NCBI RefSeq assembly: GCF_964213995.1
Contig: NC_135803.1
Location: 126,728,001-126,792,000, forward strand
DNA: 64,000 bases
Direction of reading: 5' to 3'
Source of the DNA: Mustelus asterias
Lineage: Eukaryota
Numbering within the stretch: the stretch's first letter is position 1; each line of letters begins with the position of its first letter. A program made the translations under genes and the position numbers. Below, in pieces: positions 4,179 through 53,377 of this stretch. The notes under the pieces were generated by a model. It was not told the DNA's origin. It saw nothing but the letters and a program-made list of their open reading frames with translations, and ran no database searches.

Positions 4179-4722
4179 CATGATGTGGAGGTGCCGGCGT
4201 TGGACTGGGGTAAGCACAGTAAGAAGTCTCACAACACCAGGTTAAAGTCCAACAGGTTTATTTGGTAGCACAAGCCACAAGCTTTCGGAGCACTGCCCCT
4301 TCATCAGGTGAGTGGGAGTTGTGTTCACAAATAGGGCATATATAGACACAAACTCAATTTACAAGATAATGGTTGGAATGCAAGTCTTTACAGGTGATTA
4401 AGTCTTAAAGGTACAGACAATGTGAGTGCAGAGAGGGTTAAGCACAGGTTAAAGAGATGTGTATTGTCTCCAGCCAGGACAGTTAGTGAGATTTTGCAAG
4501 CCCAGGCAAGTCGTGGGGGTTACAGATAGTGTGACATGAACCCAAGATCCCGGTTGAGGCCGTCCTCGTGTGCGGAACTTGGCTATCAGTTTCTGCTCAG
4601 CGACTCTGCGTTGTCGTGTGTTGTGAAGGCCGCCTTGGAGAACGCTTACCCGAAGATCAGAGGCTGAATGCCTGTGACTGCTGAAGAGTTCCCCAACAGG
4701 AAGAGAACACTCCTGCCTGGTG
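4179..4722 (-). mobile_element. Penelope-like element (family 1) 3' fragment
   Basis: Homologous to the left arm at 25991-26439 (end of the GIY-YIG coding region plus 3' region); has the same terminal GATGTGGAG.TGCCGGCGTTGGACTGGGGT tail. Confidence 0.85.
4276..4310 (-). ncRNA. Minimal hammerhead ribozyme motif in Penelope-like element
   Basis: Minus strand reads CAC-CUGAUGA-A-GGGGC-AGU-GCUCC-GAAA-GCUU-GUG. Confidence 0.7.
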
Positions 4723-24335: not shown

Positions 24336-24666
24336 AGAACATCGTTTTAGAAATAATCCAGCCACACTATTTTCATCTAACACCAACATTTGCTATGAGA
24401 GAGAAACACAAGGTTTGCATATTGGTCGTTAACTTGGCATCTTTTAATGGACAGCAGTTCAACACATGAGGTACCATTAAAAACAGCATGAAACTGTGAA
24501 AACAATTGATCTACCAACAAAATATTGATTACAACACAGGTCAATGCTCATGATCATGAACACTAGTCAATGACGAGAGGCTGTTCAAAAACAGATAGGA
24601 CGATACTGTTCCCATTGACTGAAGCGTTGAGAATCAGCAGCGACAGATTTAAGGTGAATGTCAATG

Positions 24667-24869
24667 ATGTGGAGATACCGGTGTTGGACTAGGGTTGTCA
24701 AGATGAGAGGCCAGATGGACCCCAGGTTATAGTCCAACAGGTTTATTTGAAATCACAAGCTTTCAGAGCGCTGCTCCTTCACCTGACGAAGAAACAGTGC
24801 TCAGAAAGCTTGCGATTTTAAATAAACCTGTTGGCCTATAACCTGGTGTCGTACGACGTTTCAACATCT
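24667..24869. mobile_element. Fold-back Penelope-like element (older subfamily)
   Basis: Arms 24722-24780 and 24788-24846 with a 7-nt loop, diverged outer arm, ~35-nt unpaired tail, TSD TCAATG; degenerate hammerhead at 24779-24815. Confidence 0.8.
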
Positions 24870-25320: not shown

Positions 25321-25468
25321 ATGGCGTCGTTAGCTTTCGACAGCGGCTCGCGCCCAACCGTTAACCCCGACATCGCGAGCGAGCGGGGGGATCCCACTTT
25401 CCCGCTCGAGAAACTGGTCAACCTGCTGGACGGCGGAGCGGGTCGCACCCGCACCAGGAGGGCTGTCG
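25321..25468 (+). CDS. ACOX2: ACOX2 coding exon 1
   Basis: gcgATGG Kozak-like start. MASLAFDSGSRPTVNPDIASERGDPTFPLEKLVNLLDGGAGRTRTRRAV is an ACOX N-terminus (NPDI..ER...F....L...LDGG). Donor G|gtgagt. Confidence 0.9.
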
Positions 25469-25490: not shown

Positions 25491-25700
25491 CCGCGGTCAA
25501 ACCGACAGTTGCATGGCCAGAGTGTGTCCGTTTAAACCGGGGGCTGCGTGGCCAGAGTGTGTCCGGTCAAACCAGGGGCTGCATGGTCAGAGTGTCCGGT
25601 TAAACCGGGGCTGCATGGTCAGAGAGTGTCCGGTCAAACCAGGGGTTGCATGGTCAGAGTGTGTCCGGTCAAACCGGGGGCTGCATGGTCAGAGAGTGCC
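25491..25700. repeat. GC-rich minisatellite, ~6 x 33-37 bp
   Basis: Unit CCGGTCAAACCRGGGGCTGCATGGTCAGAGTGTGT, starting ~22 nt into ACOX2 intron 1. Confidence 0.9.
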
Positions 25701-26051
25701 AATTTCACAATTACAGGATTTAATCCAAAACACTGAATAGACCTGAACTTTTCAGTTAAAGCCTCTAATTTGCCAGCTTGTCCCAAATCCAGTCTGGCAA
25801 AAACTCCCTTAACTAGATATTGGGAAGATTGACACAGTTGTCCTCTGTCCCCTCACTCCTGTCCCCTCGTCACCTCTCTCTGGAAGCTGTCTGCAATCTA
25901 ACCAAATTGCTCCTAACCTTTATAGCCCTATTTAACCGCAACATGATAAGACCGCCTATTTTACTGGTTCCCAAACTGGGGTCCATGAACCAGTAAGACG
26001 TTTAACAACACCAGGTTAAAGTCCAACAGGTTTATTTGGTAGCAAAAGCCA

Positions 26052-26088
26052 CACAAGCTTTCGGAGCTCTTAGCCCCTTCTTCAGGTG
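26052..26088 (-). ncRNA. Minimal hammerhead ribozyme motif (left arm)
   Basis: Mirror image of 26818-26854. Confidence 0.7.
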
Positions 26089-26817
26089 AGTGGGAATTCT
26101 GTTCACAAACAGAGCTTATAAAGACACAGACTCAAATTACATGAATAATGCTTGGAATGCGAATACTTACAACTAATCAAGTCTTTAAGAAACGAAACAA
26201 TGTGAGTGGAGAGAGCATCAAGACAGGCTAAAAAGATGTGTATTGTCTCCAGACAAGACAGCCAGTGAAACTCTGCAGGTCCACGCAACTGTGGGAGTTA
26301 CAAATAGTGTGACATGAACCCAATATCCCGGTTGAGGCCGTCCTCGTGTGTGCGGAACTTGGCTATCAGTTTCTGCTCAGCGACTCTGCGCTGTCGTGTG
26401 TCGCGAAGGCCGCCTTGGAGAACGCTTACCCGAATATCAGAGGCCGAATGCCCATGACCGCTGAAGTGATATTCGGGTAAGCGTTCTCCAAGGCGGCCTT
26501 CGCGACACACGACAGCGCAGAGTCGCTGAGCAGAAACTGATAGCCAAGTTCCGCACACACGAGGACGGCCTCAACCGGGATATTGGGTTCATGTCACACT
26601 ATTTGTAACTCCCACAGTTGCGTGGACCTGCAGAGTTTCACTGGCTGTCTTGTCTGGAGACAATACACATCTTTTTAGCCTGTCTTGATGCTCTCTCCAC
26701 TCACATTGTTTCGTTTCTTAAAGACTTGATTAGTTGTAAGTATTCGCATTCCAAGCATTATTCATGTAATTTGAGTCTGTGTCTTTATAAGCTCTGTTTG
26801 TGAACAGAATTCCCACT

Positions 26818-26854
26818 CACCTGAAGAAGGGGCTAAGAGCTCCGAAAGCTTGTG
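26818..26854 (+). ncRNA. Minimal hammerhead ribozyme motif (right arm)
   Basis: CAC-CUGAAGA-A-GGGGC-UAAGA-GCUCC-GAAA-GCUU-GUG: CUGANGA/GAAA core, helix II hairpin, helix I CAC/GUG, and a palindromic AAGCUU in place of helix III. Confidence 0.72.
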
Positions 26855-27029
26855 TGGCTTTTGCTACCAAATAAACCTGTTGGACTTTAACCTGGTGTTG
26901 TTAAACGTCTTACTGTGTTTACCCCAGTCCAACGCCGGCATCTCCACATCATGACGTCCATGAACCACCCAGGTGCCGTGGTCAACAGTAAGGGAGTGAA
27001 TGACAGCTGCAGGTGTGGCCCGCACAGCT

Positions 27030-27073: not shown

Positions 27074-27080
27074 CAGGCTT

Positions 27081-27164
27081 GATGTGGAGATGCCGGCGTT
27101 GGACTGGGGTAAACACAGTAAGAAGTCTCACAACACCAGGTTAAAGTCCAACAGGTTTATCTGT
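27081..27164 (-). mobile_element. Penelope-like family-1 80-bp 3' stub
   Basis: Tail plus GGTTAAAGTCCAACAGGTTTAT; TSD CAGGCTT(GA) at 27074 and 27165. Confidence 0.85.
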
Positions 27165-48834: not shown

Positions 48835-49790
48835 AGAGACTCAGAGACAAAATGGCACAAAAGGAGCCCATTCTGGCCCTCTGTAGAACAATCCAGTCAA
48901 TCCTATTCCTTCACTATCTCCATAGCTCTGCAGGTTCATTTCCCTTAAATGCGCATTCAATTTCACTTTGAAATTATTGATCATTTCTGCTTCCAACGTC
49001 CACGTAGACACCAAGTTCCGGGTCATTACTACTCACGGGACTAGCTTAGGGGTTAAAATAAAGGGGCGGCATGGACAAGTTGGGCCGAAGGGCCTGTTTC
49101 CATGCTGTAAACCTCTATGACTTTAAGCTCTTCCACATTTCCCTGCTGCACCACTTGCCATAACCTTAAATTCCTTGTCCTTTTACCATCAGCTTTATTT
49201 TTGTCTACCTTATTTAAACTTGTCATAATTTTGTACCATGTATCAACTCAAATTTGTTTTTTTAAAATTAATGTCACAAGTAGGCTTACATTAACATTCA
49301 ATCTTTAACACACCCCTCAATCTGTTGTGCTCCGGGAACAGCTCCAGCTTCTCCAACCTAACATGTAACTAAAATCCCTCATTCCTTGAACCTTCCTGCT
49401 GAATCTACTCTGCACCATCTGATAGACCCTCACATCATTCCTAAAGGGTAATGATCAGATCTGGACACAGTGCTCTAGTTGTGGCCTAACCAGAGCTTTA
49501 TAAAGGTTCAGCATAACTTCCCTCCTTTTACTCGGTAAGAAGTCTCACAACACCAGGTTAAAGTCCAACAGGTTTATTTGAAACCAATTAGTGATTCCAA
49601 ATAAACCTGTTGGATTTTAACCTGGTGTTGTGAGACTTCTTAGAGTTCTGACCCCAGTCCAACGCCGGCATCTCCACCTCATGGCCTTTTATACTCAACA
49701 CCCATATTTATGAAGCCCAAAATTCCATATGGTTTGCTAACCACACAGTCAAATGTCCTGCCGCATTCATGATCTATGCATATGGACCTC
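48835..49790 (-). mobile_element. Old CR1 fragment with several nested insertions
   Basis: Degenerate CR1 3' half, interrupted by a + strand CR1 tail (~49040-49122), a SINE tail (~49260-49296) and a fold-back Penelope. Confidence 0.7.
49533..49684. mobile_element. Mini fold-back Penelope-like element
   Basis: Arms 49536-49580 and 49598-49642, ~40-nt tail, TSD CCTTTTA. Confidence 0.85.
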
Positions 49791-51929: not shown

Positions 51930-52180
51930 AGTATCTATTTATGTTGTGTCTGAAAGCATACAAATCTATAGAGAAATATATTAAATATTTAACAGCACAA
52001 CTGTTGTAATTTGGAAGATTAGGTACCTTTGACATTCCAACCCACTGCATTTACAGTGTGCTGTACCATAGTTGGCCATATATATATCATGTAGAGATGC
52101 CGGCGTTGGACTGGGGTAAACACAGTAAGAGTTTTAACAACACCAGGTTAAAGTCCAACAGGTTTATTTGGTAGCAAAAG

Positions 52181-52217
52181 CCATTAGCTTTCGGAGCGCT
52201 GCTCCTTCGTCAGATGG
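52181..52217 (-). ncRNA. Minimal hammerhead ribozyme motif
   Basis: Minus strand reads CCAU-CUGACGA-A-GGAGC-AGC-GCUCC-GAAA-GCUA-AUGG. Confidence 0.75.
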
Positions 52218-52260
52218 AGTGGAAATCTTTTCACTGGATCCACTGGAGTGGATTTCCACT

Positions 52261-52297
52261 CCATCTGACGAAGGAGCAGCGCTCTGAAAGCTAATGG
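52261..52297 (+). ncRNA. Minimal hammerhead ribozyme motif
   Basis: CCAU-CUGACGA-A-GGAGC-AGC-GCUCU-GAAA-GCUA-AUGG. Confidence 0.72.
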
Positions 52298-53377
52298 CAT
52301 TTGCTACCAAATAAACCTGTTGGACTTTAACCTAGTGTTGTTAAAACTCTTACTGCATATATACATCACCCAGAGGAATAAACTTGCATCAACCCTTCAG
52401 TTCTTTATTCCATAAATTCTGGGTCAAATTATTCTGCAGTTGCAGCTCCAATCTATGCACAAGATTTCCTGCTTGCTTCTGCATCAGACTAGCATTCAGG
52501 ATACTCTTCACTCCTCAGAACCTGCTGTTGAAATCTCGGTAACAGTCCAAACTCCAAGATTCCCTCTATTGACACCACAATCTCGGCCCAGTTCCAAGAT
52601 CAGTGCCTTCAATCCAATCTTAGCTGTTGACAAGTTAGATTTTTGAGTCTGGCTTGGCCCCCACAGAAACCAAATAAAATTATAGGAAATGATGGACTTT
52701 CCAAATTGCTGTCTAGTAATGCTCAATTTCTGCTAGTGCAAATCTTAATGTTGACAGTAATTTATAAACTACAGTAAATCAAATACTGTCTCTGGTAGTG
52801 TAGTATTTGTGATTTCTTTTAACTTGAATGGATGAGGGCCTTAAATAGATTTCTCAAGTGGAGTTAGCTGTTTAAACATCTTAGCTATGTAATGCAAATA
52901 GTTAAAGCTAACTATTGTTGAAAGAATTTATGCAACTACCAGAGTATTTGTTAAATTTTATTCTCCTATTTTGGACCATAAAGAACTTGCAATACAATAA
53001 TAACAAAAATCTGGGCACCAGAGATAAATTAACTTTGGAAATATATTTAATATACAAATTATTATAAGCATGCAAATACATTTGTTATACTCGCAATTAG
53101 GATAGCCATTTGGGACTAAGAGCTATACCGTCAATGATAGTTTATGATGAAGCAAAGAACACATGACTCCATCTTATATATTTTATTGAGATATGCCTAT
53201 TTTGGTTGCAGAATATGATGCAATCATAGCACAATATGATATTCTTTTGTCTAAGCCTGAAAAAACAATTCACTGAAGTTTTGCATTTTGAATGGCCTGT
53301 CCTTGGTGTAAAATTATTGTTATCATGCACCATTGCTTCTCATTTTATCTAGCCTCAGTACTTTTCCATCAAACAAC

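Follow-up and report, generated by a model that had tools for sequence, protein, structure and literature searches.

A perfect head-to-head palindrome of Penelope-like element 3′ ends downstream of the first coding exon of a shark ACOX2-like gene

A 64-kb stretch of Mustelus asterias DNA, referred to here in its whole length as the window, contains in an ACOX2-like gene an insert made of two perfectly complementary arms. It is very probable (about 0.9) that this insert is a non-autonomous, 5′-truncated copy of a very abundant shark Penelope-like retroelement (PLE), which integrated in a single event and in the head-to-head layout usual for its family. The palindrome is real and, within that family, ordinary.

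Structure and identity of the insert

An inverted-repeat search of the window shows that positions 25991-26439 match the reverse complement of 26467-26915 at 449 of 449 nt, with a gap of 27 nt between the two arms, just as the first-pass annotation had described. The pair is the longest among 114 inverted pairs in the window and far exceeds what chance would produce. The 40-nt tail reported earlier is indeed present on the right arm only. An exact duplication of the target (TSD), with the sequence GTCCATGAAC(CA), encloses the insert; its length had been given as 10-11 bp and is better stated as 10-12 bp, since the final 2 nt can be assigned either to the arm or to the target. The features of the locus are as follows:

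25321..25468 (+), first coding exon of the ACOX2-like gene, from protein matches, collinear exon blocks and a donor
25981..25992 (+), left TSD, 10 bp to 25990 or 12 bp counting the 2 shared nt
25991..26439 (−), inverted tail-less copy of the element 3′ end, stopping at the family's inner end point CTTACTG
26083-26091 (ACOX2 strand, +), consensus-like splice donor in the antisense arm
26298..26468 (−), open 56-aa C-terminal fragment of a PLE polyprotein (GIY-YIG endonuclease end), from protein matches
26440..26466 (−), loop of 27 nt, native element sequence, contiguous in the copy at 4179-4686
26465-26608 (+), mirror of the PLE fragment, 47 aa
26467..26915 (+), direct tail-bearing copy of the element 3′ end, reverse-complement match to the left arm
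26813..26862 (+), minimal type-I hammerhead motif from a motif scan, its mirror starting at 26093 on the minus strand
26870-26875 (ACOX2 strand, +), AATAAA in the sense arm
26916..26955 (+), one-sided PLE tail, 38 nt matching the end common to other copies plus 2 extra nt
26956..26967 (+), right TSD, exact match to the left TSD

Each arm corresponds to the 3′ end of a PLE and comprises the GIY-YIG C-terminus, the 3′ UTR and a minimal hammerhead. The 56-aa peptide, encoded on the minus strand by the loop and the left arm, matches 23 of 25 candidate proteins with 63-93% identity, mostly at their C-termini. It is 86% identical to the C-terminus of shark protein P0004, which carries RVT_1, DKG and YIDD, and 91% identical to shark protein P0002, whose GIY-YIG scores above cut-off. 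The association of RT with a GIY-YIG at the C-terminus in one ORF, proper to EN+ PLEs, is found through these relatives, the RT being absent from the stump at the locus. Five of the seven relatives examined contain a cysteine pair in the GIY-YIG core (VYLIRCxKGCPxAWYIG), a region that is cut off at the locus itself, and four of the seven contain a CX2-5CxxC linker between RT and EN (CHSNLCKTC or CHGNLCKTC). This linker marks Neptune and Nematis and is missing in Penelope/Poseidon, as far as the excerpts of PMC8557442 go; together with the vertebrate host, it suggests a Neptune label for the shark family. The 56-aa fragment alone matched no Pfam family, and a Pfam search with two window peptides returned 0 families each. 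No autonomous or full-length PLE copy was found within the 64-kb window, and DNA motif scans of metagenome contigs and of viral contigs gave 0 matches each.

Two other candidate interpretations of the arms were rejected. The mirrored 61-aa open reading frames noticed previously do exist, with a TTG start (26103-26288 on the minus strand and 26618-26803 on the plus strand), and palindrome symmetry alone produces them; being a trivial product of this symmetry and sitting behind the element's stop codon, they were discarded as coding evidence. A MITE or TIR DNA transposon was likewise discarded, given that the one-sided tail makes the termini differ and that the arms encode the PLE endonuclease end. 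Separately, exonisation or annotation read-in is suggested by the occurrence of the PLE endonuclease C-terminus inside the annotated shark proteins P0003, P0007, P0017, P0020 and P0022 (XRCC5, FAM210B, septin 5a, FAM204A isoforms and a PYRIN-domain model).

Family copies were searched for across the window using the last 166 nt of the element as a query. This search gave 11 matches in 7 loci, 4 of which hold head-to-head palindromes; the ACOX2 palindrome is not singular, and its layout is a habit of the family. The palindrome near 24.7 kb (24664-24869; 55 of 63 positions match, 8/63 are mismatched, 7-nt centre) is older and diverged, and precedes the ACOX2 start codon by about 450 bp. The palindromes at 49530-49684 (52 matches, 3 mismatches or 3/55, and 2 gaps) and 52087-52355 (102/105 matches, 3 mismatches) are both located in ACOX2 introns, and the 23-nt centre of the latter is mostly non-native filler. 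Candidate TSDs of 7-13 bp, with 0-1 mismatch, are present at all seven family loci, those at 4 kb and 49 kb being weak. Family ends are of two classes, spaced about 38 nt from each other: those of tail-bearing copies lie at CATCATG or close to it, and those of the tail-less arms in the 26- and 52-kb palindromes lie at CTTACTG, 38 nt before the tail-bearing end. Judged by eye, the longer arm is the tail-less one at 24 and 26 kb and the tail-bearing one at 49 and 52 kb.

Public sequencing data clearly show a family of very high abundance. Contigs of 4 of 24 listed runs were placed on 25700-26510, a segment that runs from the left flank through the left arm and the loop to 44 nt into the right arm. 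In run X1 the summed depth reaches 1.3-21.7 million over the arm against 24.6 over the flank, a figure that is not a copy number.

Formation of the inverted arm

For the formation of the inverted copy, we tentatively favour two-ended priming, at odds a little short of even. The PLE endonuclease would nick both target strands 10-12 nt apart; one nicked end would prime reverse transcription at an outer start site, yielding an arm with its tail, and the other would prime at an inner start site, yielding an arm without it. The two cDNAs, stopping 27 nt apart, would then be joined through a 2-nt microhomology. The loop is the extra 5′ length of the tail-less left arm and meets the right arm via about 2 nt of microhomology, a value that follows from native-like contigs (records 16 and 32), which stop matching at 26468. 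In the available portion of PMC11167929, the Poseidon enzyme of Anolis acts on both strands, cutting and extending each, and has two start sites that bracket the tail; the two end-point classes of the shark family match these two reverse-transcription start sites.

Both arms carry the same minority letters of the family (G at 26194, which accounts for 2-13% of family depth, and the letter at 26071, which accounts for 21-42%) and therefore descend from one source lineage. These shared variants, along with the TSD, support the single insertion event proposed in the first-pass annotation. Arms made in one event would be identical at birth and decay slowly thereafter.

A second mechanism, which involves the same element and the same event and which we regard as possible though doubtful, is a self-primed hairpin: antisense RNA or free cDNA would fold back and be copied, one tail then being clipped or left uncopied. 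Self-priming is proposed for head-to-head PLE repeats in PMC3846280 (in the part available), and the plus-strand order of antisense arm, antisense loop, sense arm and tail is that of a hairpin minus its 5′ tail. The minority letters common to both arms are also what a single copied template predicts. However, in the simplest version, in which a tail-primed cDNA folds back onto itself, the loop should continue the tail-bearing arm; the observed loop continues the tail-less arm, which rules this version out. Moreover, two-strand, two-site priming, as seen in vitro, explains a one-sided tail without any clipping (PMC11167929, in part). The distribution of the longer arm over the four palindromes fits either mechanism, and two-ended priming and the self-primed hairpin are inseparable from one locus alone. 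The formation of PLE inverted copies is still called undefined in the text seen of PMC8557442.

An 8-nt stretch (ACTGGGGT) just outside the left TSD, at 25975-25982, also occurs in the antisense tail, in a register shifted by 3 nt. This post hoc match is equalled by 97 of 24,442 control windows (0.4%), and the other three palindromes show 3-5 nt; such target-tail similarity may have helped to prime the tail-less arm.

Host gene and predicted hairpin

The 49 codons at 25321-25467 match three shark acyl-CoA oxidases among the 25 candidates, two of which are named acyl-CoA oxidase 2-like, and two acyl-CoA oxidase matches map as 13 collinear blocks on the plus strand from 25360 to the window end. 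The exon-1 splice donor is located at 25468/25469, and the left arm starts 522 bp after it, in agreement with the distance of about 520 bp estimated earlier. A CpG island (o/e 1.01) lies at the first coding exon, with two CCAAT and two GC boxes just upstream, which makes it likely that the palindrome resides in ACOX2 intron 1; the first coding exon would then be the first transcribed exon. A 35-bp minisatellite of 5.9 copies (25494-25698) begins 25 bp past the exon-1 donor.

The insert probably forms a hairpin in the ACOX2 pre-mRNA. The dsRNA of about 450 bp anticipated from the letters is recovered in the predicted fold, which pairs 449 of 449 positions at −915 kcal/mol. Nuclear intronic dsRNA is seldom diced in vertebrate soma, and the modelled hairpin would be expected to leave with the intron and to have no selected function. 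It may be edited by ADAR, by analogy with lizard Penelope elements, for which the excerpts of PMC5625713 give >40,000 edited sites. At the DNA level, the extrusion of a cruciform next to the promoter, also put forward in the first-pass annotation, is disfavoured by the 27-nt spacer: for yeast inverted Alu repeats, a 9-bp spacer cut breaks by 80% and abolished fork arrest (PMC8053094, in part), and the argument is made by analogy with them. An 84-nt antisense family copy with a tail and a 9-bp TSD is found at 27080-27164, 128 nt past its right-arm match, and could pair with the tail left free by the main hairpin.

Each arm contains one hammerhead motif, made of CUGAAGA, an extra A, a 6-bp helix II and GAAA-GC-UU, and helix II folds in RNA folding. 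Compared with the minimal PLE hammerhead features taken from the accessible part of PMC4209133, the motif has the CUGANGA and GAAA core, the extra nucleotide between 9 and 10.1, the G10.1-C11.1 pair and a palindromic 15.2-16.2. Rfam at gathering score gave 0 matches across the whole window, hammerhead families included. Folded alone, the region has a z value of −0.32, with 73 of 200 shuffles equally good, and folding energy therefore gives the hammerhead no support. The idea that the hairpin masks its own hammerhead holds in so far as burial is predicted in the fold, but the consequence is probably small, because cleavage by a single minimal PLE hammerhead was not detectable in vitro (PMC4209133, in part).

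A bolder reading, and a long shot, is that the palindrome is a young, maybe segregating allele acting on ACOX2, whose inverted arm was primed via the 8-nt target-tail complementarity. The hairpin would in that case hide a cryptic splice donor and poly(A) signal or, alternatively, the outward-facing arm would fire antisense into the promoter. If this were true, the family's many shark palindromes would make up a class of intronic dsRNA alleles across the genome as well as a natural record for settling how PLE inverted copies form.

It is quite improbable that the palindrome is a functional or selected ACOX2 cis-element, serving as an editing substrate, a small-RNA source or a mask for cryptic signals. 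Its closeness to the exon-1 donor (522 bp) and to the CpG island, the complete pairing of the predicted fold, the presence in the arms of the consensus-like splice donor (26083) and AATAAA (26870), both on the plus strand, and the editing of lizard Penelope elements speak for such a role. Yet other ACOX2 introns hold two older palindromes of the family, and a further one is located upstream, which indicates that the layout arises without selection; the arms of these palindromes have drifted apart. Repeat editing is, in addition, a genome-wide background, with 200,171 edited sites in elephant shark brain (PMC5625713, in part).

Sequencing contigs, age and known systems

Consistent with a genuine insertion, one contig of run X1, at single-copy depth (24.6), spans the left flank and 29 nt of the inverted arm, a length below the 31-nt bridging rule, in a run that may be the assembled sample. 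Contigs of runs X3, X4 and X18 stop short of covering the left junction. All 4 runs have loose ends at 25991 that carry the tail, and the 24 loose ends listed of 456 include none from an empty site. In 7 of the 14 joints listed, the antisense arm is connected, at other positions, with the beginning of the sense arm; every one of these joints occurs in a single contig, at depth 10-43, with sides of only 20-28 nt and, for 5 of the 7, unknown letters between, and they are consistent with other head-to-head copies. Outside the palindrome, at 25775, X1 and X3 show an A>G difference, the simplest explanation of which is an allele.

An assembly or library fold-back artefact is very improbable. It would accord with the 100% identity of the arms and with the central junction, which is absent from the 32 contig pieces listed of 54,338. 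Against it, the flanks differ and carry the exact TSD, the contig reaches the inverted arm from the unique left flank, and the inner end point of this arm is that of the diverged 52-kb palindrome.

The palindrome had been described as very young or homogenised. It is relatively young, being the youngest of the four (0/449 mismatches against 3/105 at 52 kb, P ~3e-6 at equal age), but its absolute age is bounded only from above, and homogenisation is not required because the arms were identical at insertion. With 0 changes in 898 sites and a rate of 7e-10 per generation, measured in another species, the epaulette shark (PMC10587355, in part), the age is at most about 4.8 million generations (95% bound). 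Two separate insertions, or an old palindrome held identical by gene conversion, are scarcely credible: arm identity by itself permits conversion, but one TSD encloses both arms, the open reading frame and 17 CpGs per arm are still present, and the other window palindromes carry mismatches (3/105, 3/55 with 2 gaps, and 8/63), so that arms are not kept identical.

The ACOX2 palindrome is a fresh instance of a published PLE insertion layout. Typically, a PLE has next to its 5′ end an inverted 5′-truncated copy, and one of its ends carries a tail of 30-40 bp (PMC8557442, in part). Rotifer examples comprise inverted pLTRs, a 31-bp tail and 8-10-bp TSDs, head-to-head being the most frequent PLE arrangement (PMC3846280, in part), and a repeat curation guide gives the same traits (PMC8969392, in part). 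The inverted 5′-truncated copy, the one-sided tail in the 30-40-bp range and the TSD are all found at the locus. No publication on the shark PLE family or the ACOX2 locus, and none linking ACOX2 with Penelope, was found in a literature search that covered few subscription papers and not Repbase. As a clean example of a published layout, the single locus matters little, and its value is that of a pointer: the abundant shark family could supply thousands of junctions bearing on two-ended priming versus self-priming, and PLE palindromes are likely to supply sharks with intronic dsRNA on a large scale.

The locus shares with EN+ PLEs (Penelope/Poseidon, Neptune and Nematis; PMC8557442 and PMC3846280, both in part) the head-to-head truncated copies, the tail at one end, the TSD, the hammerhead in the repeat and the GIY-YIG at the C-terminus. 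It differs from them in that nothing but the element's last 0.5 kb is present, and consequently the whole insert is palindromic, with no ORF between repeats. With Anolis carolinensis Poseidon (PAc; PMC11167929, in part) it has in common the two end points that bracket the tail and the hammerhead in the repeat. However, the shark relatives carry the CX2-5CxxC linker that Penelope/Poseidon lack in the excerpts of PMC8557442, the shark target is not AT-rich, and the shark family is known here from sequence alone. Finally, like the ADAR-edited repeats described in part of PMC5625713 (lizard Penelope and frog palindromic Harbinger), the insert is self-complementary and would form dsRNA without a partner copy; editing is observed in those repeats, whereas the dsRNA of the shark locus comes from fold prediction.
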